Sequence record: LC739533.1 | Length of the DNA stretch: 64,000 nt | Source of the DNA: Escherichia phage phiWec179 | Strand: one strand, 5' to 3' | Part shown: positions 15,697 to 38,021 of the stretch, one piece after another | How the letters are laid out: each line of letters begins with the position of its first letter | Numbering within the stretch: position 1 is the first letter of the stretch | Notes under the pieces: model-generated | Database searches by the model: none | Told to the model about the DNA's origin: nothing | Seen by the model: only the letters and a program-made list of their open reading frames with translations | Made by a program: the position numbers and the translations under genes

Positions 15697-16065
15697 ATGA
15701 AAGTCTTGAACTTCTACCATTTAGGTAAAGTTGTTCCCGACACTGCAATATACATTGGACGCGCGATGCCCCACTTCGGGTTGAAAGCGTCAAAGTTTGC
15801 CAACCCGTTCAAACTGAAAGAGGATGAACCAAGAGGTGCTACCATTCAAAGATACAAAGAGTGGTTGTGGGATCAGATCCGTTCTGGTAAGATAACTCTT
15901 GAAGATTTGTTGGAGTTGGAAGGTAAAGATGTAGTCTGCTTTTGCTCGCCCCAGAAATGTCATGGAGATGTGCTCGTTGCAGCCGTGGCATGGGCGCGAA
16001 GGGAATACGATAGACGTAATCCACCGTTTACGGATGGGTATTGGAACTGGGAGGAAAATCTATGA
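15697..16065 (+). CDS. DUF4326-like protein
   Basis: Recalled family motifs IYIGRAMPHFGL, FANPF, VCFCSPQKCHGDVL. Confidence 0.45.
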   Translation: MKVLNFYHLGKVVPDTAIYIGRAMPHFGLKASKFANPFKLKEDEPRGATIQRYKEWLWDQIRSGKITLEDLLELEGKDVVCFCSPQKCHGDVLVAAVAWARREYDRRNPPFTDGYWNWEENL

Positions 16066-23453: not shown

Positions 23454-24056
23454 ATGCAACAACTGATCGTTAATATGCCTCGCACTGGTAATGAAGTTTT
23501 TGGCTCACCAGTAGACAAAGTTTGGAAAGCACACTTTCATCTGACCTTAGCCGAGGTAAGTAGTAAAGAGCTTATGCGAGCAGCAAAGATTATCGGTGCA
23601 AAATGCACAACTATCGATCTACATCGGGACACGCAATCACAGCGCGATCGTATGTTAACTAAGTATCAGGGTGGCATTGACACAGGCTTAATGTTGGAAT
23701 GTGTGGCAAAGTTAAAAGCGGCTGGCTTCAAAGTGTTACGCTATAAACTGGAACAAATGTTCAAGGACGTAGAACACGTAATGCAGATGAACCTAAGCAA
23801 AGAACATTACGGAGAAGTACACATCAAGACTCCTGCCTCTATGCCGGAGATTGATACTGGCTTCTTCCGTATCTCTTCTAATGCCGAAGAGGTGGATTAT
23901 CGTTTCTATAATGCCCGTCTGTATACCGAAGAAGATAAGTTGCAGTTCAAGAAAGCTTATGATATGCTTCTGGCAAATGATGTTGAAATAAAGGGCTACC
24001 ATGTAGAACAAGTGGTAGTAGACAGTAATCTTAACTTAGACGCATGGTGGGCTTAA
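23454..24056 (+). CDS. Hypothetical protein (200 aa)
   Basis: Intact ORF with AAGGAG RBS. One H-x-T-x element (HLTL) but no clear second one, so no family call. Confidence 0.55.
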   Translation: MQQLIVNMPRTGNEVFGSPVDKVWKAHFHLTLAEVSSKELMRAAKIIGAKCTTIDLHRDTQSQRDRMLTKYQGGIDTGLMLECVAKLKAAGFKVLRYKLEQMFKDVEHVMQMNLSKEHYGEVHIKTPASMPEIDTGFFRISSNAEEVDYRFYNARLYTEEDKLQFKKAYDMLLANDVEIKGYHVEQVVVDSNLNLDAWWA

Positions 24057-24057
24057 T

Positions 24058-24714
24058 ATGACTATTAAACATATCTCTTTTGATGTATGGAACACACTGA
24101 TCACAGCAAACCCCAATTACGCAGATATGCGAGCGTGGACTATCGCAAAATACGGGGATATTACGGAAGTAGAAGCAAGAGCAGCTTACAAGAAGATCAA
24201 AAAGGAACTGGACAATGCCGCACTTCAGGGAACAGCCGAGTGTGCAGCATATGCCTGGGAAAGACTTGGTTACGAACTTGGGATAACACCTTTGAAGTCT
24301 GCAAAGCTTCGTTTCGAGTGTGAACAGTGGTTCCTTAAGTTTCCACCGCATGTGGCTGTGGATTTACCGATGCACTTGCTGTATCTTTCGGGGCGTTATG
24401 ATTTGAGCATCAAGAGTAATACCAACTTCATATCAGGAGATATCTTGCGACGTGCCTGTAAGTTTGAAGGTTGGAATTGTTTTGAGTTCACACATTTCTC
24501 GGATGAAGCTTTACTTTGTAAACCAGATCCGCGATTCTTTGCTCGCACGATCACTTATTCTCCAATCCCTCTGGTAGGGCAGGAAGTGTTGCACGTAGGT
24601 GATAGTGAAGAATATGATGGAAAATGTGTTGACGTAGGATTTAACTTCTGTCATATTAAGAACCCTAACGACTTGTTAGATAAACTTGCTAAAGGAGAAC
24701 TTGTTAATGCGTAA
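24058..24714 (+). CDS. HAD-superfamily hydrolase-like protein
   Basis: Motif I-like ISFDVWNTLI (second Asp replaced), motif II SIKSNTN, motif III CKPDP, motif IV VGDSEEYD. Confidence 0.5.
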   Translation: MTIKHISFDVWNTLITANPNYADMRAWTIAKYGDITEVEARAAYKKIKKELDNAALQGTAECAAYAWERLGYELGITPLKSAKLRFECEQWFLKFPPHVAVDLPMHLLYLSGRYDLSIKSNTNFISGDILRRACKFEGWNCFEFTHFSDEALLCKPDPRFFARTITYSPIPLVGQEVLHVGDSEEYDGKCVDVGFNFCHIKNPNDLLDKLAKGELVNA

Positions 24715-25534
24715 TCAAACTCAAATCTTTGCTCACAAATTCGATAGTCTGGAAACTGCTCGCTTTGATATTCGTGACTATTCCAAACTGAAGTTTGGCA
24801 GCAACCAGGCGGCTCGCCGTATGGGGCGAACGCTGGCAGTCTCTTTCTATGACTTGGTAGTCAAGAATATGCCGGAAGAAGAATTTGTGGTGATTCCTTC
24901 ACCTTACAACCATGTGCATAACGCAGCAACCATGATGACCAATCAGTTCATCAACTTCCTGAACCTGTTGCTGTTGAATCACAAGGGTAGCCGTGCAGTA
25001 GAATTGGATACGATCCACCGCAAGGTGAGTTACATTAACGATTATGGTTTCCTGGACAAAGCGAGCCGTAAGAAACTGATTGATGGTGACACCTTCTATT
25101 GCAACAAAGATTTTTGGGGCAACAAGAAGCTGATCTTCATTGATGATGTGAACATCACGGGAACTCATGAAGACAAACTGATTGAGATCCTGGATGAAAA
25201 TAAAGTTACGAATGATGTTTACTTCCTGTATTTTGCGAAGTATACTGGTAATCAAGCAGACACAGAGGCTAAACTGAACTTCAACCATATTAACACGACA
25301 GATGCTTTTGTTAAGATGATCAATGAAGAATGTGATGCGCAGTGTCTTGTTCGTCCTATCAAGTATTTGATGGGACAAACACCGGAAGAGTTTAAAATCA
25401 TTCTTTCCCGTTTGCCGCACCAATACGTAGAAGCACTGTTCTTTGGGTGTCTTGGGGAAGGTTATGATAAGATCGAGAAGTATTCTGAAAACTTCGTCTT
25501 CCTGAACCGTTACTTTAACCAGCATATCCTGTAA
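24707..25534 (+). CDS. Type I phosphoribosyltransferase (PRTase) domain protein
   Basis: PRPP-binding loop KLIFIDDVNITGTHED. Start at MRNQTQ after AAAGGAG RBS. Confidence 0.65.
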   Translation: MRNQTQIFAHKFDSLETARFDIRDYSKLKFGSNQAARRMGRTLAVSFYDLVVKNMPEEEFVVIPSPYNHVHNAATMMTNQFINFLNLLLLNHKGSRAVELDTIHRKVSYINDYGFLDKASRKKLIDGDTFYCNKDFWGNKKLIFIDDVNITGTHEDKLIEILDENKVTNDVYFLYFAKYTGNQADTEAKLNFNHINTTDAFVKMINEECDAQCLVRPIKYLMGQTPEEFKIILSRLPHQYVEALFFGCLGEGYDKIEKYSENFVFLNRYFNQHIL

Positions 25535-25543
25535 GGAGGGAAA

Positions 25544-26026
25544 ATGTTGAAGGTTGTTACTGGGAATCTGATCGATGCCGCCAAGAATGGGAAAGTGAAC
25601 GTTATAGCCCACTGTTGTAACTGTATGTGTAATATGGGTGCAGGGATTGCTCCGCAAATTAAACGAGCATTTCCTTATGCATATGCAGCCGACTTGGATA
25701 CAGCGGCAGGTGATCAAAGCAAACTGGGTTCTTTTAGTTTAGGGGTGCCGGAGGAAGTGTCTGACCCACTGGTTTATAACCTGTACGGACAGTACCGTTA
25801 CGGGTATAACGGTAAAGGTCGTCAGTTGGACTATGATGCCCTGTACGATGCTCTTGAGGCTATGGCAAAGGATCTCCACAAATGGGTGAACACATCTGCC
25901 AAACATAAGATTGGTCTACCTATGATCGGAGCAGGGTTGGCAGGAGGTAATTGGGCTATCATTGAAGTGATGATTGAAGAAACTTTAGTAAAAACAGGTC
26001 ACGATGTGACTATTTATAAACTTTAA
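25544..26026 (+). CDS. Macro domain protein, TARG1/OARD1-like (ADP-ribose binding or hydrolysing)
   Basis: VNVIAHCCNCMCNMGAGIAPQIKRAFP and C-terminal LPMIGAGLAGGNWAIIEVMIEE...VTIYKL, close to recalled OARD1 motifs. Confidence 0.7.
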   Translation: MLKVVTGNLIDAAKNGKVNVIAHCCNCMCNMGAGIAPQIKRAFPYAYAADLDTAAGDQSKLGSFSLGVPEEVSDPLVYNLYGQYRYGYNGKGRQLDYDALYDALEAMAKDLHKWVNTSAKHKIGLPMIGAGLAGGNWAIIEVMIEETLVKTGHDVTIYKL

Positions 26027-26039
26027 GAGGAGAAATAAT

Positions 26040-26261
26040 ATGGGTGTTGTTGCAGGTGTTCTGGCAGTAGTTATCGTGTTTGTTCTGGCTTTCCTGATTA
26101 GTATGATTCCAGCATGGCTTCTGCTGCTGGCTTATAACTACGTTGTTGAAATGATGGGTCACACAGATATCACTGTTCCTATCACCTTCTGGACTGTGGT
26201 GTGTGTGGCATTTATCATGGCTGTACTACGTGGGATCTTTTCCTCAAGTTCTTCAAAATAA
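26040..26261 (+). CDS. Small membrane protein (73 aa)
   Basis: Two hydrophobic helices. Confidence 0.5.
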   Translation: MGVVAGVLAVVIVFVLAFLISMIPAWLLLLAYNYVVEMMGHTDITVPITFWTVVCVAFIMAVLRGIFSSSSSK

Positions 26262-26264
26262 GTG

Positions 26265-26323
26265 TTGACAAGGTTTTAGAATAGAGTAAGATGTATCACA
26301 TGAGGCGGGGAGTGGTTCCCCGC
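26265..26323 (+). promoter_or_regulatory. Conserved early promoter (TTGACA-N16-TAAGAT) with 5' leader hairpin, plus-strand copy upstream of terC
   Basis: -35 (26265-26270), -10 (26287-26292), then GTATCACATGAGGCGG and hairpin GCGGGGA/TCCCCGC (26305-26323). Confidence 0.6.
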
Positions 26324-26342
26324 AAAGAGAAAGGAGAAAATA

Positions 26343-27317
26343 ATGCAACTTGGTTTTCCAATCATTGATGTAGTGGTGTTGGTAGGTATTCTTGTTCTGT
26401 CGATCTGTGTTGACTTTTTTGGTCATCGTGAAAACAAGGAGATCTCTTTCAAATCCGCTGTGGCTTGGTCAGTATTCTGGATTGGTGTGTCTTTAGCCTA
26501 CTACGGTTTTGTATACTTCCAGCACGGCGCAGCTTTTGCAAACTTATTCTTGAGTGGATATGTGTTAGAGAAGTCGCTCTCGGTAGATAACTTGGTAGTG
26601 TTTGTAGCAGTGTTCTCCAGTTTCGGGATTAAGAGCACACACTTACAACACAAAATTCTACTCTGGGGTATTGCAGGTGCGATTGTCTTCCGAGGTGTGT
26701 TTGTAGCAGCAGGGACTTATCTGCTAAGTTTGGGTTGGTTTGTTAATATCATCTTCGGTGCTGTTATCCTGTTCTGTGCTTTTAAAATGGTAATGGCTGG
26801 CGGTGATGATGAAGAAGTGGATTACTCTAAACATTGGGCGACACGCTTTGTACGTAAACTATTCCCAGTATCGGATCAGATGGATGGCGAGAAGTTCTTC
26901 ACAATTAAGAATGGTGTTCGTGTAGCAACTCCGGCTCTGGTTTGTGTGTTCGTGATGGAAATGGTGGATGTGATCTTTGCAGTAGACTCGGTTCCGGCTG
27001 TAATTGCAGTGACACAAGAACCACTGCTTGTATTCTCTTCGATGCTCTGTGCAATCTTAGGCTTACGTGCTCTGTTCTTTGTTCTTAGTGTGGCCCTGAA
27101 GTATCTGGTTCACCTGGAAAAAGCAGTTATCGCAGTCCTGGTGTTTGTTGGTGTGAAACTGATGTATCACCCGTTTGCAGAAACGCTGCACGCAAAAGTG
27201 AGCTTCCTGCCAGCGCATATTGACCCGACGATCAGCATGTATATCGTGCTTGGTACTCTGACCCTGGGCGTGATTGCAAGTTTCATCTTCCCTGAAAAAG
27301 AAGAAGCTACCGCTTAA
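26343..27317 (+). CDS. terC: TerC-family integral membrane protein
   Basis: Signature segments EKSLSVDNLVVF and AVDSVPAVIAVTQEPLLVFSSMLCAILGLRALFF; multiple transmembrane helices. Confidence 0.85.
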   Translation: MQLGFPIIDVVVLVGILVLSICVDFFGHRENKEISFKSAVAWSVFWIGVSLAYYGFVYFQHGAAFANLFLSGYVLEKSLSVDNLVVFVAVFSSFGIKSTHLQHKILLWGIAGAIVFRGVFVAAGTYLLSLGWFVNIIFGAVILFCAFKMVMAGGDDEEVDYSKHWATRFVRKLFPVSDQMDGEKFFTIKNGVRVATPALVCVFVMEMVDVIFAVDSVPAVIAVTQEPLLVFSSMLCAILGLRALFFVLSVALKYLVHLEKAVIAVLVFVGVKLMYHPFAETLHAKVSFLPAHIDPTISMYIVLGTLTLGVIASFIFPEKEEATA

Positions 27318-28840: not shown

Positions 28841-29431
28841 ATGAATACCGAGAGAGATTTAAAACTCTTGTGGTGGGAAGTGATGCAGGAGATCAAGGAG
28901 GATTTCCCTGTTTACTACAACATGCTACGTGAAGCTGGATATACGGCTTGCGTTAGGAACAAAGTGAATAACTCTTTCGGTTGGTGCAACTACCGAGAAA
29001 AGATTGTTGTTGTGAATTGGCACTTGCATAAAAACTCCACAAGGGATATGATAGTGGACACAATGAAGCATGAGATTGCTCATGCGATCGACGGTTGTAT
29101 GGGTAAGTTCAGTCGTCATGGACCACACTGGCAAAAGCTGGCAGCAGAGTTGGGAGCCAATCCTAAAGCTACTTCCAAAGAACCGTTAAACCATGAGTAC
29201 AAATATGTTCTTGTTTTGGTGGACAGATTTGCCACAAGATGTGTTAGAGGGTATAATCGTAAACCTAACCGTATGACTCCAGGGAAACAACCACATATTT
29301 GGTTGAAGAGTGATAAAGAGGGGACAGAAGGAAAAATATGGTTGTATAAATGGGAAGATTGGGTTAAAGTAGCTAAAGAATATGGTGTTTCACCTTACAC
29401 AAGAGAAATAGAAGAGGAGAATGAAGAATGA
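28841..29431 (+). CDS. SprT-like zinc metalloprotease domain protein
   Basis: HExxH motif MKHEIAHAI followed by HGPHW. Confidence 0.5.
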   Translation: MNTERDLKLLWWEVMQEIKEDFPVYYNMLREAGYTACVRNKVNNSFGWCNYREKIVVVNWHLHKNSTRDMIVDTMKHEIAHAIDGCMGKFSRHGPHWQKLAAELGANPKATSKEPLNHEYKYVLVLVDRFATRCVRGYNRKPNRMTPGKQPHIWLKSDKEGTEGKIWLYKWEDWVKVAKEYGVSPYTREIEEENEE

Positions 29432-30540
29432 CAAGTCCATTTTTGAAAGCGGCAACTGGTGGTCAAAAGAAATCTGAAACGAGTGTACTGACTGCTACTA
29501 CAGATGCAAGCAAGTCCGTGTTCGCTCCGAGTGTCCTGGATGCAAGTCCAGTGTATGCTCCAGCAGCGCCAAAAGCTGTGCCTACCTTGCCAACAATGTC
29601 TCGTAAAGAGATTGAAGAAGTGGGTGCAGAAGCAGGTTTAACTCTCCGCACGCTGAATGCCGAAGTGTTAAAGCACCAACGTAGCAATCAAGGCGATGAA
29701 ATGAGCCAACGCCTTACCGCGCTGATTAAACAAGCCAAACAGCTTGATCCTGCTTCTATCAAGCAGAGCAAAGGTGTAGGCAAACTTATCAAGAAACTGA
29801 TGGGTATGAAGGAAGATCTGTTCGGGGAATTCGATAATGTGAACAACCGTATCGAAGAACTCGTTAAGAATCTTCAGATGGATATTCGTAAAGAAGAAGA
29901 TTCTCTGGTGTACCTGGAGAAGCTGCACCAGGCGATCGGACAGTACGCCGCAAGCCTGAATCGTGATATGGAATTACTCACAGCAGCTTATGAGCAAGAA
30001 CTGGCTAACTTTGAAGCTACGCCAGAAGATGACGTAGAAGCCCGTCAACGCGTCCGTGACACGCTTGATCTTCTGGAGATACGTATTGCTGACTTGAAGG
30101 CATTACGCTTGCTGTGCGTGCAAATGGGTCCGCGTGTATTGGGTATGCAGAAAGTATCTGCCAGCCTCATGCGTTCTGCTCGTAATATTGTGAACAATGT
30201 GATTCCTGCTTACTCGGCAAACTTCTCGATGTATATTGAAAGTCTGCGCCAGAAGAAAGCAGCAGAAACACAGAACAACGTTCTGGACGAGTTCAACCTG
30301 GCAATCAAACTGGGTAGCGATCTTGCCACACAGAACCAGATCGAAGCAGCAGCACTGGCTAACCGCCAAGTGTTGGATATCGAAACTCTGCGTCACGATC
30401 AGGAGAACTTGGTTAAGATGTTGGAAGAAACTAACCGCATCAATACGGAAGCCCGTGCTGCCCGTGTTGATTACATCAATGAAGTTCAATCTCTCGAAGA
30501 TGGGATGGTTGACGCTGTTAAGAAGGGGTTGGGTAAATGA
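29428..30540 (+). CDS. TelA-like (toxic anion resistance family) coiled-coil protein
   Basis: 370-aa largely helical protein adjacent to TerC and TerD; family call is from recalled profile and context. Confidence 0.45.
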   Translation: MTSPFLKAATGGQKKSETSVLTATTDASKSVFAPSVLDASPVYAPAAPKAVPTLPTMSRKEIEEVGAEAGLTLRTLNAEVLKHQRSNQGDEMSQRLTALIKQAKQLDPASIKQSKGVGKLIKKLMGMKEDLFGEFDNVNNRIEELVKNLQMDIRKEEDSLVYLEKLHQAIGQYAASLNRDMELLTAAYEQELANFEATPEDDVEARQRVRDTLDLLEIRIADLKALRLLCVQMGPRVLGMQKVSASLMRSARNIVNNVIPAYSANFSMYIESLRQKKAAETQNNVLDEFNLAIKLGSDLATQNQIEAAALANRQVLDIETLRHDQENLVKMLEETNRINTEARAARVDYINEVQSLEDGMVDAVKKGLGK

Positions 30541-31644: not shown

Positions 31645-32445
31645 ATGTCCAATAAAATTAGCCTGAAGAAACGCCAAGACACCCTGACCATTTCACTGAA
31701 GAAAAAGAAAATTGTCAACGAAGATCAAAAGATCGTTCTGCGTGTTGCAAGCGCACTGGATATCTCCGGCAGCATGTCCAGCCTGTATCGTAACGGTACT
31801 GTAAGTGAGTTTGTTGGTAAGCTGCTTCCGTTTGGTATGCTGTTCGATGATAACGCGCAGATCGATATGTGGGCTTTCAACAATAGCTCTCGTGAAATCA
31901 CTCCAGCAACTGCTGATGTGTATGATGATTACGTTGGTAAATGCATTAATGGTCGTGTAACAGTCCAGGGTGGCACAAGCTATGCACCTGTTATGCAGGA
32001 TATTTACGATTCCTACTTCGGTAGCACCACTAAATATGAAACTGTAGAAACCCCTGTAACCAAAGAAGTTCCTAAGAAAGGTTTCTTCAACCGTTTACTG
32101 GGTAAAACCGAAACTGTAGAAGCTATTGTAGAAAAAACTGTAGCCGTTGCTGTGCCTGGTGTAGACGTTACTCCGGCAGTTGTGTTCTTCCAGACAGATG
32201 GAGAGAACGATGATCCGAGCCGTGTACTCTCCGTACTGGAAAAGAACAAGGGTAAACCTATTTACTGGTTCATGGTGGGTGTTGGTAGTGCTCGTTTCTC
32301 TTTCCTGAAAGATTTGGCTGAAGCTTACGACAACGTAGCATTCATTGGTCTGAACGATCTTTCCTTGACAGACGAGCAGCTTTACGATAAACTCTTGTCT
32401 GAAGAGTTCGGTGAGTGGGTTGAAAAGGTTGGTGCTAAGAAATGA
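31645..32445 (+). CDS. von Willebrand factor A (vWA) domain protein, TerY-like
   Basis: MIDAS motif DISGSMS, downstream GGTSYAP and VVFFQTDGENDD. N-terminus ISLKK...ISLKK resembles the TerD N-terminus. Confidence 0.7.
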   Translation: MSNKISLKKRQDTLTISLKKKKIVNEDQKIVLRVASALDISGSMSSLYRNGTVSEFVGKLLPFGMLFDDNAQIDMWAFNNSSREITPATADVYDDYVGKCINGRVTVQGGTSYAPVMQDIYDSYFGSTTKYETVETPVTKEVPKKGFFNRLLGKTETVEAIVEKTVAVAVPGVDVTPAVVFFQTDGENDDPSRVLSVLEKNKGKPIYWFMVGVGSARFSFLKDLAEAYDNVAFIGLNDLSLTDEQLYDKLLSEEFGEWVEKVGAKK

Positions 32446-32961: not shown

Positions 32962-33564
32962 ATGAGCGATAAAATTTCCCTGAAAAAAGGTTCCACCGAG
33001 AAGATTTCCCTGAAGAAAGTTGCTCCGGCACTGAAAGAACTGCGTCTGGAGTTCTCCTGGAAATCAAACTCTAAACTGGATCTGGATGTAAGCGCACTTG
33101 TATGCCGACACAACGCCTCTGGCAACCCTGAAATGCTGTCTGCACGTCATCTGGTTTGTTATGCTAACAAGTTTGATCCAGAACGTTCTGTATTCGCAGG
33201 TGATGATGTTCGTGACGGTACTGGTCAAATGGAACAAATCGATGTAACCTTGGCTAAGATCTCCGATAAAGCCGAAGAGATTGCTTTTGTCCTAACTATT
33301 GATGATGAAACGGGTCAGAAACGTCTGGGTCACGCTACTGAAGGTATGCTGAAGATCTTTGATGCCGAGCGTAACGTTGAGATCCTGGACTTCGACTTCT
33401 TGGCTCCTGAAGTGGCTGGTAATACCATCTGCCACGTAGCTTCCCTGGTTCGTGAAGACGGTGAATGGAAACTGAAAGCTTACGGTGTTGGTAAAGCAGG
33501 TATGGATATCTGTGATGTGGTTATGGCCTTCGGTGGTCAGAAAGAATGGTACGATTGCCCGTAA
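32962..33564 (+). CDS. terD: TerD-domain protein
   Basis: Aligns along its length with recalled TerD: ISLKKGSTEKISLKK, DLDVSAL, GDDVRDGTGQMEQIDV, IAFVLTIDDE, EDGEWKLKAYGVG. Confidence 0.8.
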   Translation: MSDKISLKKGSTEKISLKKVAPALKELRLEFSWKSNSKLDLDVSALVCRHNASGNPEMLSARHLVCYANKFDPERSVFAGDDVRDGTGQMEQIDVTLAKISDKAEEIAFVLTIDDETGQKRLGHATEGMLKIFDAERNVEILDFDFLAPEVAGNTICHVASLVREDGEWKLKAYGVGKAGMDICDVVMAFGGQKEWYDCP

Positions 33565-34880: not shown

Positions 34881-35444
34881 ATGATTTATTATATTACCCC
34901 CTATCTAAGTGGAGATATCGGCAAAGCAATTAACGATGCTATTGCCGTTCTTCACGAAGATAGTTGGGTCTGTTTACGTGATATCGATACCATGTTCTTA
35001 CTGCCAGACCAACCTTCTATGTTGGAAGATTTGGTAGCAACCAATCCACCGTTTGATGTGATCGGTGCGTCTTGTAATCGTTTAGGTAGTGGTTATCAAC
35101 TTCTCGGTGGAAAGATTGATGATGATCCTAACATTCTGAACCATATTTCTCATGCCAAAGTTGCTCGTGATTACTATGGTGATGAAATTGAAGAAGTCCC
35201 ACAAGGCACTCCCTTAGCAGGTTTCTTTCTATTGTTCAGGAAATCATTATGGAAGGAGATCCCTTTTGAAGAACGTACCATCCAGTTCGATATAATCTTC
35301 TCAAACACTTTACATGAACGAGGAAAAAGGTTAGGATTGATGCGTGGGATGTATCTCTTCCATATTTACCGTTTAGGTCAAAAAGATCCTCAACGGGCAA
35401 TATCACACCTTATGCATTGTCATGATCACCGGAAAACTATTTAG
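34881..35444 (+). CDS. Putative glycosyltransferase-like protein
   Basis: DxD-like LRDIDTMF; call rests mainly on position at the head of the glycosyltransferase block. Confidence 0.35.
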   Translation: MIYYITPYLSGDIGKAINDAIAVLHEDSWVCLRDIDTMFLLPDQPSMLEDLVATNPPFDVIGASCNRLGSGYQLLGGKIDDDPNILNHISHAKVARDYYGDEIEEVPQGTPLAGFFLLFRKSLWKEIPFEERTIQFDIIFSNTLHERGKRLGLMRGMYLFHIYRLGQKDPQRAISHLMHCHDHRKTI

Positions 35445-35452
35445 GGGGAAAG

Positions 35453-36136
35453 ATGGAAAATATTAAAATTGGGGTTGGCGTTATCACTGTAGGTGTTCGT
35501 CCACTTAAAGATTACATGGTTGCACCTGGTGTAGACTTCAAAGTGTTTCACGATCCCGATCGTAAAGGTGTAGCTTATGCTCGCAACCAATTAATGAAAC
35601 AGTTCTACGATGAAGGTTTTGACTACTGGTTCATTTTTGACGATGATTGCTATCCGGTTAAACGTGGCTGGGAAGAATACTTCGTTAACCAGGCTGTCGA
35701 GAATGGTTGGGACTTCTTCGGTATGCCAGAATACTTCAAAGATACTGTGATAGGTTGTTCTGGAGAAGTAGTCTTCTGGGAATTGGCTATGTGTCAGTTT
35801 GCAATGTATTCTCGTGCAACTGTTGAGACGATGGGTTATTTCCGTCCTTATACACACGGATATGGTTTCGAAGATGCAGAATGGACTAATCGTCTGAAAG
35901 CTTCAGGTTTGAATAAAGGACTCCAGGGCGTACCTTGTCCGATGCGCATTATGGCGTACATTCACCCCGACGATGTTTTCGGTGATAACCCTTTACCTTT
36001 TGCTAATCTGACAAAAGAAGAGAAAGAATCAGCAATCGGGATCAATTGGGAAGAATACAAACTGTCTTTGGAGGATATTAATAATGGCAAAACACACATC
36101 TCTTTTGAAGAGGCTGAAGGATATGGCGTTAAATAA
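35453..36136 (+). CDS. GT-A fold glycosyltransferase
   Basis: DYWFIFDDDCYP (DxD) and GYGFEDAEW segments typical of GT-A enzymes. Confidence 0.6.
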   Translation: MENIKIGVGVITVGVRPLKDYMVAPGVDFKVFHDPDRKGVAYARNQLMKQFYDEGFDYWFIFDDDCYPVKRGWEEYFVNQAVENGWDFFGMPEYFKDTVIGCSGEVVFWELAMCQFAMYSRATVETMGYFRPYTHGYGFEDAEWTNRLKASGLNKGLQGVPCPMRIMAYIHPDDVFGDNPLPFANLTKEEKESAIGINWEEYKLSLEDINNGKTHISFEEAEGYGVK

Positions 36137-37070
36137 GAAACCAACCCTACTGTGTGACAACAAATTCAACAGTGGTTGTGATTACCATCGCATTGTCATG
36201 CCATTTTCTAACACAGAGATCAAGCCACGTACTGATGTACTGGTCTTTAACCGCATCTTCTCGAAGGGTGCTGATGAAGTAGCCAAACTTAAGCGCCAAG
36301 GTGTTAAGATTGTTGTAGATTTGGATGATTTCTATCAATTGAATCCAGAACACTACCTGGCGCATCTGTACGCGCCAAACACCCGCACAATCGTGGAAAT
36401 GGTTAAAATAGCAGATATTGTCATTGTCACAACCGAATACCTGGCGTACAAAGTTCGTCACTTAAACTCTAACGTTGTTGTGATCCGAAATGCTCTACCG
36501 TTTGATGATGGTCAATTCACTCTCTCGAATGATCGTACTTCGGGTACGCCTATCATTTGGGCTGGAGGTGCGAGTCATGAACCGGATTTACGTTTGCTTT
36601 CAAACACTTTTGATGATAGTTTATTGTCTATCGCAGGGTATGAAGCGAGCAGCACAGTGACAGGGCAAGAGTGGGTTAAGATCCGCCGTAGTTTGCCTAA
36701 TGCGCAGTATAAACCTGCTGTAGATTCTTTGAATCATTATATGTCTGCATACGATGGTCATGCTATGGCTGTAGCTCCGTTAGTAGATAACGACTTCAAC
36801 CATTGCAAGAGCAACCTGAAAGTATTAGAAGCTGGTGCTAAAGGCATTCCAATCGTTTGTTCTAAGGTATTACCTTACTACAACCCGATCGATGCCCGTG
36901 CAGTAACCTTCGCAGATAGCAAAGCAGAGTGGCACTATGAAGTTGTAAAACTACTTCGTAATCCAAACTACCGCGAAGATCGTGGACTGTTCTTGGCTGA
37001 ACATGTTCGTACTCACTACAACTTGAAGGATGCAAACGAATTGCGTCGTCAAGTGATCGAAAGTCTGTAG
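36084..37070 (+). CDS. GT-B fold glycosyltransferase, paralog 1
   Basis: C-terminal KSNLKVLEAGAKGIPIVCS nucleotide-sugar binding motif; paralog of 37071..38021. Start has GGAGGA RBS but overlaps the upstream gene by 53 nt. Confidence 0.6.
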   Translation: MAKHTSLLKRLKDMALNKKPTLLCDNKFNSGCDYHRIVMPFSNTEIKPRTDVLVFNRIFSKGADEVAKLKRQGVKIVVDLDDFYQLNPEHYLAHLYAPNTRTIVEMVKIADIVIVTTEYLAYKVRHLNSNVVVIRNALPFDDGQFTLSNDRTSGTPIIWAGGASHEPDLRLLSNTFDDSLLSIAGYEASSTVTGQEWVKIRRSLPNAQYKPAVDSLNHYMSAYDGHAMAVAPLVDNDFNHCKSNLKVLEAGAKGIPIVCSKVLPYYNPIDARAVTFADSKAEWHYEVVKLLRNPNYREDRGLFLAEHVRTHYNLKDANELRRQVIESL

Positions 37071-38021
37071 GTGTTTATGGGACAAATTATTCTTGACAAT
37101 CGTGGTGGAAAAGAATATAGTGTCTGTGATTATCACCGAGTAATGCTGCCTTACACAAGGCAGTTCTCGGCCCAACCGTCACAGAACGTATATGTCTTTA
37201 ACGGTGTCCCTACGAAAGGGAAACAAGGCTTCATAGCCCTTAAGAGCATGGGCTTTAAGATGGTAATGGATTTGGATGACTCTTTAAACATTCCCCAAGG
37301 CCATATGCTGGAAGACATTTTTGATGCAGGTATTCGAGAAGACTTGCAATGGTTCCTCGAACGCAGTGATCTTGTAACGACAACAACCCCTGCTCTCCAG
37401 GTGGAATTGTCCCAGTACAATCCTAACGTGCATATTATCCCAAATGGTTTACCGTTTGACGAGGATCAGTTTACGTTAACTCGTGATCGCTACTCCAAGT
37501 CCCCTGTAGTTTGGGCTGGAAGTGAAACACACAAGCAAGACCTGGCTCTACTACCGAACTTCGGGAGTGACTTAACGATTTGCGGATTCCGCAGAGATAG
37601 TGAAGTGTTAAGTAGTCAGCAATGGACCGATATACGTGAAAAGGTGGCTCCAAGCTGCAAATATGAGGCTGTTAGACCATATGAGAGCTATATGGAATCT
37701 TACGACGGTCATCAGATAATGCTTGCACCTCTAACAGATAACATGTTTAATAACGCTAAGAGTAACCTGAAGATTCTGGAAGCAGGTGCCAAGGGTTTAC
37801 CTTTAGTGTGTTCTCCCCGTGAAAACTACTTCACCGAAGAGTTTAAAGATTTGTTGTTCTTTGCAGAAACAAAAAGCGAGTGGGAAGATATTGTTAATTA
37901 CCTGATCCAGTGTCCTGATGTGGGTATTGAAAAGGGATTAGCTTTAGCTAAGTATGTTCGTAAGCATTACCATATTGATGTGCTGAATGAACGCCGTAGA
38001 TTATTATTTGAGGAGTTATAA
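37071..38021 (+). CDS. GT-B fold glycosyltransferase, paralog 2
   Basis: KSNLKILEAGAKGLPLVCS; shares CDYHR(I/V)(V/M)(M/L)P and other blocks with the previous gene. Start codon GTG 37071 or ATG 37077. Confidence 0.6.
   Translation: MFMGQIILDNRGGKEYSVCDYHRVMLPYTRQFSAQPSQNVYVFNGVPTKGKQGFIALKSMGFKMVMDLDDSLNIPQGHMLEDIFDAGIREDLQWFLERSDLVTTTTPALQVELSQYNPNVHIIPNGLPFDEDQFTLTRDRYSKSPVVWAGSETHKQDLALLPNFGSDLTICGFRRDSEVLSSQQWTDIREKVAPSCKYEAVRPYESYMESYDGHQIMLAPLTDNMFNNAKSNLKILEAGAKGLPLVCSPRENYFTEEFKDLLFFAETKSEWEDIVNYLIQCPDVGIEKGLALAKYVRKHYHIDVLNERRRLLFEEL

Follow-up and report, generated by a model that had tools for sequence, protein, structure and literature searches.

The window analysed here is a stretch of 64,000 nucleotides from Escherichia phage phiWec179 (LC739533.1). 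Between positions 24,058 and 26,026 it carries three consecutive genes, which encode a HAD-like protein, a phosphoribosyltransferase (PRTase), and a macro domain protein. An original prediction took the three genes as a single operon for ADP-ribose (ADPR) or NAD chemistry. We consider it probable, though well short of certain, that they make up two functionally separate units located within a phage Ter-type gene cluster. The first unit is a cassette of the HAD and PRTase_3 genes, which would synthesize a nucleoside-like small molecule. The second unit is an autonomous macro gene, whose product would act on derivatives of ADP-ribose. The three genes are as follows.

24058-24714, + strand: HAD-like gene, 218 aa
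24707-25534, + strand: PRTase gene, 275 aa counted from its ATG
25544-26026, + strand: macro gene, 160 aa

The three open reading frames (ORFs) follow one another on the + strand as had been predicted. The ATG of the PRTase gene is the start in all homologues aligned; the program-made list of ORFs begins this gene at a TTG at 24686. The HAD and PRTase genes overlap by 8 nt (ATGCGTAA), and the PRTase and macro genes are separated by a 9-nt spacer that contains GGAGG. The tight packing that was read as coupling is therefore real, but the run is not limited to three genes and is longer on both sides. A 200-aa gene stops 1 nt upstream of the HAD start, a gene for a small membrane protein starts 13 nt past the macro stop, and no convincing terminator was found in a search between the genes of the tight run. 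The phage belongs to Phapecoctavirus, Stephanstirmvirinae. A 4-kb region around the three genes is 100% identical to Escherichia phages phiWec181 and phiWec186, and about 70 relatives of phAPEC8 within Phapecoctavirus match it at 78-94% identity.

The HAD and PRTase genes as a conserved pair

A search of 5.8 billion proteins found 276 relatives of the PRTase, and all 120 of these that were listed contain PF15610. To describe their gene neighbourhoods, 42 PRTase_3 loci were gathered, the sources being GenBank phages, assemblies, viral contigs, and species-representative genomes. In 40 of the 42 loci, phage and bacterial alike, the PRTase gene is directly preceded by a HAD gene. The bacterial loci include some on chromosomes or plasmids of Rhizobium, Sinorhizobium, and Ensifer, one in an Akkermansiaceae genome, and one in a Fibrobacterota genome; the phage loci include Caulobacter phage CcrColossus, Xanthomonas jumbo phage XaC1, one or more Brevundimonas jumbo phages, and Rhizobium phages. 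Among 50,697 phage records searched by tblastn, 156 carry the PRTase. The HAD and PRTase_3 genes are a near-obligate pair, and this pair is the conserved unit.

The PRTase matches the Pfam family PRTase_3 (PF15610, 'PRTase ComF-like') with 141 bits against a cut-off of 28.7. Its loop for binding phosphoribosyl pyrophosphate (PRPP) is LIFIDDVNITGTHE, and the pattern D146-D147-V-x-I-T151-G152-T153-H-E is invariant among 18 aligned sequences. About 60 columns of the protein are invariant over these 18 sequences, which go down to 45% identity. In the AlphaFold2 model (pLDDT 90.9), a type I core formed by residues 1-185, approximately, is followed by a family-specific, all-helical C-terminal domain of about 90 residues (approximately 186-275). 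The family score, the invariant loop, and the predicted fold all support the type I PRTase with a PRPP loop that had been proposed originally. On its profile match and model, the protein is predicted to be a type I phosphoribosyltransferase of the PRTase_3 (ComF-like) family and to catalyze ribosyl transfer.

A Foldseek comparison of the model with the PDB gave 57 matches at E <= 0.001. Among the best 50 of the 57, HGPRTs (6-oxopurine PRTases) are on top, together with other PRTase-fold proteins that include APRT and PyrR, and ComF of H. pylori (7p0h) is found at rank 24. The similarity extends only to the PRTase core (TM score about 0.38, identity 12-16%), and the base specificity is therefore not readable from the fold. 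Sequence searches found no solved relative of the PRTase and no match to salvage PRTase families in Pfam and NCBIfam. The protein shares the PRPP loop and a five-stranded Rossmann-like core with ComF/ComFC and with 6-oxopurine PRTases. Unlike these proteins it has the extra helical domain at its C-terminus, and unlike ComF it has no zinc-finger N-terminus. A literature search for PF15610 or PRTase_3 found no paper.

The HAD-like protein is assigned by its sequence to subfamily IA with a C1 cap. Motif I is FDVWNTL (D9-x-W11-x-T13), in which Trp occupies the general-acid position, Asp+2. The other motifs are S120-N121 (motif II), K155-P156 (motif III), and G181-D182-x4-D187 (motif IV). The protein scores 22 bits against Pfam Hydrolase, which is under the cut-off, and matches PHROG 14393 at 8.7e-114. 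It also matches PDB 2om6, the archaeal protein PH0253, whose motif I is the identical FDVWNTL. An alignment of 34 sequences was made, of which 33 were scored and one fragment was left out. The Trp at Asp+2 is invariant in 33 of the 33 scored sequences, as are D9 and T13, and motifs II, III, and IV are kept in at least 94% of them. The replacement of the second Asp of motif I, already noticed in the original prediction, thus holds for every sequence scored. Since the Trp is invariant and PH0253 has the same motif I, the non-canonical motif is a family trait and not a sign of decay.

The nucleophile Asp, the Thr, the Ser, the Lys, and the GDxxxxD motif are all kept, which argues for a phosphoryl-transfer enzyme and not a dehalogenase. 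The pattern is that of a putative phosphotransferase with a Mg-binding GDxxxxD. In HAD phosphomonoesterases the residue Asp+2 is the usual general acid. Because Trp replaces it here, we regard the exact reaction of the HAD-like protein as uncertain; the D-x-W motif fits the known HAD branches that have no Asp+2 and not a canonical phosphomonoesterase. The protein resembles subfamily IA enzymes (PH0253, and the REG-2-like, CTE7, and YjjG groups) in having the four HAD motifs and the C1 cap. It differs from the REG-2-like, CTE7, and YjjG families in that its NCBIfam scores are all far under the cut-offs; the matches to the YjjG nucleotidase family are weak full-length profile matches. We know of no D-x-W HAD member with an assigned substrate.

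Ter genes beside the pair

A set of Ter genes starts 300 bp downstream of the three genes, a context that was absent from the original prediction. In the window, the genes for TerC, TelA, vWA-TerF, and TerD are on the same strand as the pair, all within 9 kb.

26343-27317, + strand: TerC/Alx integral membrane protein (Pfam TerC 136 bits; NCBIfam R_switched_Alx 324 bits, cut-off 246)
28841-29431, + strand: SprT-like zinc metallopeptidase domain protein, overlapping the start of the TelA gene
29428-30540, + strand: TelA-family protein (Pfam TelA 119 bits)
31645-32445, + strand: vWA domain protein of the TerF C-terminal type (Pfam vWA-TerF-like 129 bits)
32962-33564, + strand: TerD-domain protein (Pfam TerD 103 bits)

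The phAPEC8/phi92 lineage and at least five more phage lineages have Ter genes no farther than 10 kb from the pair. When seven diverse viral loci were compared, TerD, TelA, vWA-TerF, and TerC were the sole Pfam families to recur beside the PRTase_3 and HAD genes, apart from RNA ligase, which appeared twice; DUF475 and TerB had one match each across these loci. A bacterial example comes from a metagenome-assembled genome of Haliea sp. (locus L024, 146-10669). Here the order is DUF475/TerC, TerD, three vWA proteins of the TerY type (one with TerY_C), PP2C, TerD, HAD, and PRTase_3. By its domain content this is a locus of the TerY-P type (anti-phage), with the pair at its end. The pair is also found without nearby Ter genes in rhizobia and in several jumbo phages. 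It is reasoned from this that the pair is self-contained, and that its link to Ter genes is frequent, not obligatory.

Virulence plasmids commonly carry Ter operons, as do many bacteria, and since the 1990s these operons have been tied to resistance against phages, colicins, and tellurite. A Ter-linked module was reportedly predicted by Anantharaman, Iyer and Aravind in 2012 to make a nucleoside-like metabolite, as later and citing papers relate its content. PRTases and HAD enzymes have been described as the 'signal biosynthesis' arm of Ter systems, phages included, and some phages have relatively complete or abbreviated versions of the Ter module (Iyer et al. 2021, PMC7824862). The set of genes in the window resembles such a module in that PRTase_3 and HAD genes stand beside TerC, TelA, vWA-TerF, and TerD genes on one strand. 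It differs from the classical module in having a single PRTase with a HAD, and in that this HAD has Trp at Asp+2. On its domain content the set is an abbreviated version of the Ter-associated biosynthetic module, whose function is a computational prediction, there and here. Going by the later accounts of the 2012 paper, the module is already known as a computational category, predicted in that year and noted in phages in 2021. As systems, the pair and the macro gene are both of a kind already known.

From the identified domains, the conserved catalytic motifs, the fold predictions, and the statistics of gene neighbourhoods, we infer the following mechanism for the pair, in which each enzymatic activity, the kind of base, the sequence of the steps, and the connection with Ter function are predicted. 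The PRTase would join a nitrogen base or a base-like nucleophile to PRPP, yielding a ribosyl-5'-phosphate and pyrophosphate. The HAD-like protein would then take off the phosphoryl group and leave a free nucleoside-like small molecule. According to the published prediction, this product would be a signal or effector ligand for the membrane-associated apparatus of TerC/Alx, TelA, vWA-TerF, and TerD. Apparatus and ligand may be used in infection for superinfection exclusion or stress control.

The pair could also serve ordinary management of the nucleotide pool, with a purine or pyrimidine PRTase of the salvage type and a nucleotidase that supply DNA synthesis, no special product, and no real link to Ter. 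In the window it comes directly after the NrdD and NrdG genes, which are upstream of it, and in one viral locus (L003) it is near genes for class I ribonucleotide reductase. Several GenBank records name the PRTase an orotate PRTase, its fold is best matched by HGPRTs, APRT, and PyrR, and the HAD-like protein is weakly similar to YjjG nucleotidases. However, the fold likeness is limited to the generic PRTase core, to which the family adds a C-terminal helical domain of its own, and the salvage families show no match in sequence. To make a nucleotide and then dephosphorylate it would be futile in salvage. The strict pairing with a D-x-W HAD is also seen in bacteria that already have salvage enzymes, and the pair sits in a bacterial TerY-P/TerD locus. 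A salvage role is unlikely on these grounds.

If the Ter-linked synthesis is correct, the pair is a minimal two-gene biosynthetic arm in a tractable family of virulent E. coli phages (relatives of phAPEC8 and phi92). Two small soluble enzymes and PRPP would then be a simple system toward the predicted Ter-linked nucleoside-like product.

The macro gene and the question of an NAD module

The macro gene has a distribution of its own. Its family is present in 2,965 of the 50,697 phage records, which is about 19-fold more than for the PRTase. The carriers include T4-like, rV5-like, Felix-O1-like, PAK_P1-like, and Vi1-like phages, and the sampled contexts of macro homologues are wholly different. 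Only in Stephanstirmvirinae (the phAPEC8/phi92 lineage) does the gene stand beside the pair, at a spacing of 0-0.9 kb; most HAD-PRTase loci have no macro gene. The macro gene is probably a separate, mobile accessory gene inserted beside the pair.

The macro protein scores 23 bits against Pfam Macro (cut-off 22), and it belongs to PHROG 335 (labelled 'phosphatase'), as does the Vibrio phage enzyme Adpp. Its solved relatives by sequence are, in order, SCO6735 (6e-13), BT1257, the DarG macrodomain, TARG1, and yeast Poa1p. The key residues are H23, N26, Q83, G129, G131, and G134. They include the counterparts of His24, Asn27, Gln85, and Gly126/Gly128 of SCO6735, all of which are shared (H23, N26, Q83, and G129/G131). 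The catalytic Lys84 and Asp125 of TARG1 align with Gln83 and Ala133, as in SCO6735. The resemblance to TARG1 and DarG that had been proposed therefore holds as a family likeness, and does not extend to the Lys84-Asp125 dyad, which is replaced by Gln and Ala. The mobile loop (QYRYGYNGKGRQ) is long and basic and, as in SCO6735, five residues longer than that of TARG1.

With SCO6735 and BT1257 (PDB 5e3b and 2fg1) the macro protein thus has in common Gln at the Lys84 site, Ala at the Asp125 site, the Asn, the His, and the G-x-G phosphate loop. It is unlike SCO6735 in that Val25 of the latter is Cys here, and that Gly87 and Lys89 are not conserved in position. Models of DarG are matched at their N-terminal part: in PADLOC the match covers positions 1-144 out of 329, and in the NCBIfam model, which has 338 positions, the best stretch is N-terminal (43.7 bits; cut-off 250). 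Unlike DarG and AdfM, the macro protein has no catalytic Lys (Lys80 in DarG; Gln here). Unlike DarG, it has no C-terminal DarT-binding domain, its 160 aa being compared with models of 329-338 positions. No darT-like neighbour was seen in Pfam scans of the window. From its sequence, the macro protein is a stand-alone domain of the ALC1/TARG1-like class and a further member of the Adpp/SCO6735/Poa1p group, with an activity predicted from that group.

Over its full length, the macro protein shares 40% identity (E 6e-34) with KNV71_gp137, the Adpp of Vibrio phage Gary, which agrees with it in size and in the conserved H, N, Q, and G-x-G residues. The Gary enzyme dephosphorylates ADPR-1''-phosphate, and this lets the NAD-reconstitution pathway NARP1 beat aRES, an NAD-depleting RES-domain defence present in E. 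coli, Klebsiella, and Enterobacter (Osterman et al., bioRxiv 10.64898/2026.01.28.702374). The host range overlaps aRES-bearing E. coli and Klebsiella, a further likeness to Adpp. In DNA, SCO6735 cleaves ADP-ribose off thymidine; it also rescues E. coli from DarT, and the shared SCO6735 residues and the long mobile loop matter for that cleavage (PMC9411070). Because Adpp and SCO6735 share these residues, the residues cannot separate phosphatase from glycohydrolase activity.

It is noteworthy that in Vibrio phages Quinn (locus L046, 3129-6135) and Gary (locus L052), the 40%-identical macro gene lies between a Prs-like gene (Adps) and a Nampt-like gene (Namat). This is the published NARP1-AP operon, found in 49 Vibrio phage records, and the macro protein of the operon is labelled 'hypothetical protein' or 'phosphatase' in GenBank and RefSeq. 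Unlike Adpp, the macro gene of the window is not placed between Adps and Namat; its neighbours are the PRTase_3 gene and the small membrane protein gene, and its activity is a predicted one.

The second unit would operate as follows. The macro protein would bind ADP-ribose and hydrolyse a 1'' substituent, most likely that of ADPR-1''-phosphate (Adpp/Poa1p type), which may come from RES-type NAD phosphorylases or from RNA-repair chemistry. It may also, or instead, strip ADP-ribose from thymidine in DNA (SCO6735/DarG type, anti-DarT2). In either case it would be an autonomous counter-defence or repair enzyme. A stand-alone Adpp-like macro protein could clear ADPR-1''-phosphate from the phage's own RNA repair, could blunt a RES-type defence without the need for NARP1, or could remove ADP-ribose from DNA as AdfM does.

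It is possible, and to be held tentatively, that the last of these activities is the chief one, and that the macro protein is a DNA ADP-ribosyl glycohydrolase and an orphan anti-DarT2 factor of the SCO6735/AdfM type, not an ADPR-1''-phosphate phosphatase. SCO6735, with its known action on ADPr-thymidine, is the best solved relative and shares the His, Asn, Gln, Gly-x-Gly, and long basic loop. PADLOC and NCBIfam both give matches to DarG models, the phage has no NARP1 to give an Adpp activity its known purpose, and AdfM is a phage macro protein demonstrated as an anti-DarT2 factor (PMC13309987). However, the macro protein is closer to Adpp than to SCO6735, and Adpp has the same residues. The absence of the DarG/AdfM catalytic Lys and of the DarT-binding domain, the short length, and the lack of positional conservation of SCO6735 Lys89 also stand against it.

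NAD genes were searched by tblastn in the whole phiWec181 genome, assembled from two further records (L050 and L051) and the window. Queries with Adps and Namat of Vibrio phage Quinn gave nothing better than E = 2, no Nampt-like gene matched, and PnuC or NadR-like genes gave no match at E < 0.4. Membership in NARP1 is thereby ruled out for want of an Adps or Namat homologue, and membership in NARP3, which consists of PnuC and NadR, for want of either of these. For NARP2 (NadV/Nampt-like and Nmnat), no Nampt-type gene is present in the whole genome, Nmnat not having been searched separately. The PRTase_3 protein was also considered as a homologue of Adps/Prs and rejected, since hhalign found only the 30-residue PRPP loop to be shared (probability 0.2). 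The doubt voiced originally, whether these genes match the published NAD-reconstitution enzymes, was thus justified. With NARP1 and NARP3 homologues missing and NARP2 half tested, the idea of ADP-ribose chemistry holds for the macro gene alone, whose relatives are Adpp, DarG, TARG1, and SCO6735, and not for a three-gene module.

The single operon of the original prediction, in which the HAD, PRTase, and macro proteins together rebuild NAD or dispose of ADPR products, is quite improbable. In one example of such a module, the macro protein would free ADPR from ADPR-1''-phosphate, and the ribosyl and phosphoryl steps that remain would fall to the PRTase and HAD. The coupling of the three genes is tight, and in Vibrio phages Adpp lies between Prs-like (type I PRTase fold) and PRTase-like Namat genes, a superficially parallel layout. 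In a phage without NARP1 and NARP3, no known pathway would otherwise follow on from an Adpp-like enzyme. Against this, the macro gene adjoins the pair in one lineage, and the pair does without it in bacteria and in most phages; the macro family is far more widespread than the PRTase; PRTase_3 has no profile similarity to Adps beyond the PRPP loop; there is no Nampt-type gene; and the recurrent partners of the pair are Ter and not NAD families.

Scattered NAD or ADPR genes near the pair could also be brought forward for one module. A PnuC-like transporter gene and an AAA_28 (NadR-like) gene, which together look like NARP3, are 3 kb from the pair in L003 (13029-14612). In Rhizobium phage RHph_TM2_3B a Nudix gene is 250 bp downstream of it (L044, 6283-6852); an NMN adenylyltransferase at this place was ruled out, only a weak Nudix domain being present. 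Nudix and macro genes are 6-8 kb downstream in XaC1 (L045, 15309-17751), and in L034 a macro gene lies at a distance of 7 kb. In large phages accessory metabolic genes sit in clusters, so that loose proximity is weak evidence, and the genes in L003, RHph_TM2_3B, and XaC1 may be chance clustering of this kind.

A bolder variant supposes that the macro gene was recruited beside the pair in Stephanstirmvirinae since all three proteins act on one ribosyl-1''-X metabolite and, more broadly, that the nucleoside made by the pair is the long-sought ligand of TerD, TerC, and TelA, put to use in this case by a virulent phage of E. coli. We hold this to be doubtful. One version of it may be a NARP-independent route from ADPR-1''-phosphate and/or PRPP and a base to NAD or to a new ribosyl signal.

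Several points weigh against the preferred reading, that is, a Ter-linked pair and an autonomous macro gene. In the rhizobial loci and in roughly half of the distinct phage lineages, the 10 kb around the pair hold no Ter gene. A scan of the ORFs of the window from 10 to 46 kb found no ATP-grasp, TIM-barrel lyase-like, PRTase_1, PRTase_2, or TerB protein. The activities of the PRTase_3 and HAD subfamilies are predictions, the one of 2012 included as far as later papers relate it. The Trp at Asp+2 takes away the usual general acid, and plain dephosphorylation of a nucleotide is therefore not assured for the HAD-like protein. In the phAPEC8/phi92 lineage, the macro gene stays within 0.9 kb of the PRTase gene even at 65% protein identity, and this persistent closeness could reflect function rather than history. 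Finally, an Adpp-type activity is useful, as known, only together with NARP1, which this phage does not have. The purpose of an Adpp-like enzyme in a phage without NARP1 is thus a question that the macro gene raises. The macro protein is a candidate to join Adpp and AdfM among the increasing number of phage enzymes that reverse immunity based on ADP-ribose.

Other genes of the region

The two genes that extend the tight run on either side, and the gap that follows, are described here.

23454-24056, + strand: 200-aa hypothetical protein (PHROG 22504), abutting the HAD start
26040-26261, + strand: predicted membrane protein, 73 aa (PHROG 16065)

The 200-aa protein matches, along almost its whole length, two AbiEi antitoxin models of PADLOC (6.7e-13 and 2.7e-10), and on these matches it could be an orphan antitoxin-like protein. 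It has invariant HxHxT and ExHxK motifs. Its model shows a duplicated ferredoxin-like fold, with best PDB matches at a TM score of about 0.3 or less. The motifs hinted at a 2H phosphoesterase that would feed the macro protein; this reading gained no support, as no 2H enzyme is among the best PDB matches and the gene does not adjoin the HAD-PRTase pair in other phages. It is probably a lineage-specific neighbour and not part of the pair.

The gene for the 73-aa membrane protein is kept after the macro gene in the phAPEC8/phi92 lineage. The TerC/Alx gene begins 81 nt past it. The gap between them (26262-26342, 81 nt) contains a GC-rich hairpin and a sigma-70-like promoter (TTGACA, 16 nt, TAAGAT), which a promoter scan places at 26265-26292. 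A riboswitch ahead of the TerC/Alx gene was rejected, since across the whole window every Rfam family stays below its gathering score, including the Mn riboswitch by which alx is regulated in bacteria. Further downstream, the SprT-like gene next to the TelA gene is conserved in part of the lineage.

In XaC1 the gene right after the PRTase gene (L045, 9941-11524) encodes a protein of 528 aa with DUF2828 and DUF7788, and the annotation of that locus shows no Ter gene closer to the pair than 9 kb.

Two other genes touch on ADP-ribose. A Sir2/CobB-like gene is present elsewhere in the phiWec181 genome (15686-16486, L050), and a DUF4326 protein is encoded inside the window (15697-16065, + strand). 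Phage sirtuins of this type have been tied to RNA-end repair that yields phosphorylated ADPR (Iyer et al.), and DUF4326 has been tied to NAD/ADPr systems (PMC7824862). The macro gene may have its real functional partners in these two proteins.

Four consecutive glycosyltransferase-like genes are located at 34881-38021 (+ strand) of the window, between a cell-wall hydrolase gene and a primase-helicase gene. They comprise GT2-like genes, one with a weak match to TET-associated glycosyltransferases, and two GT1-like genes. The phage genome begins with genes of the dTDP-rhamnose pathway.

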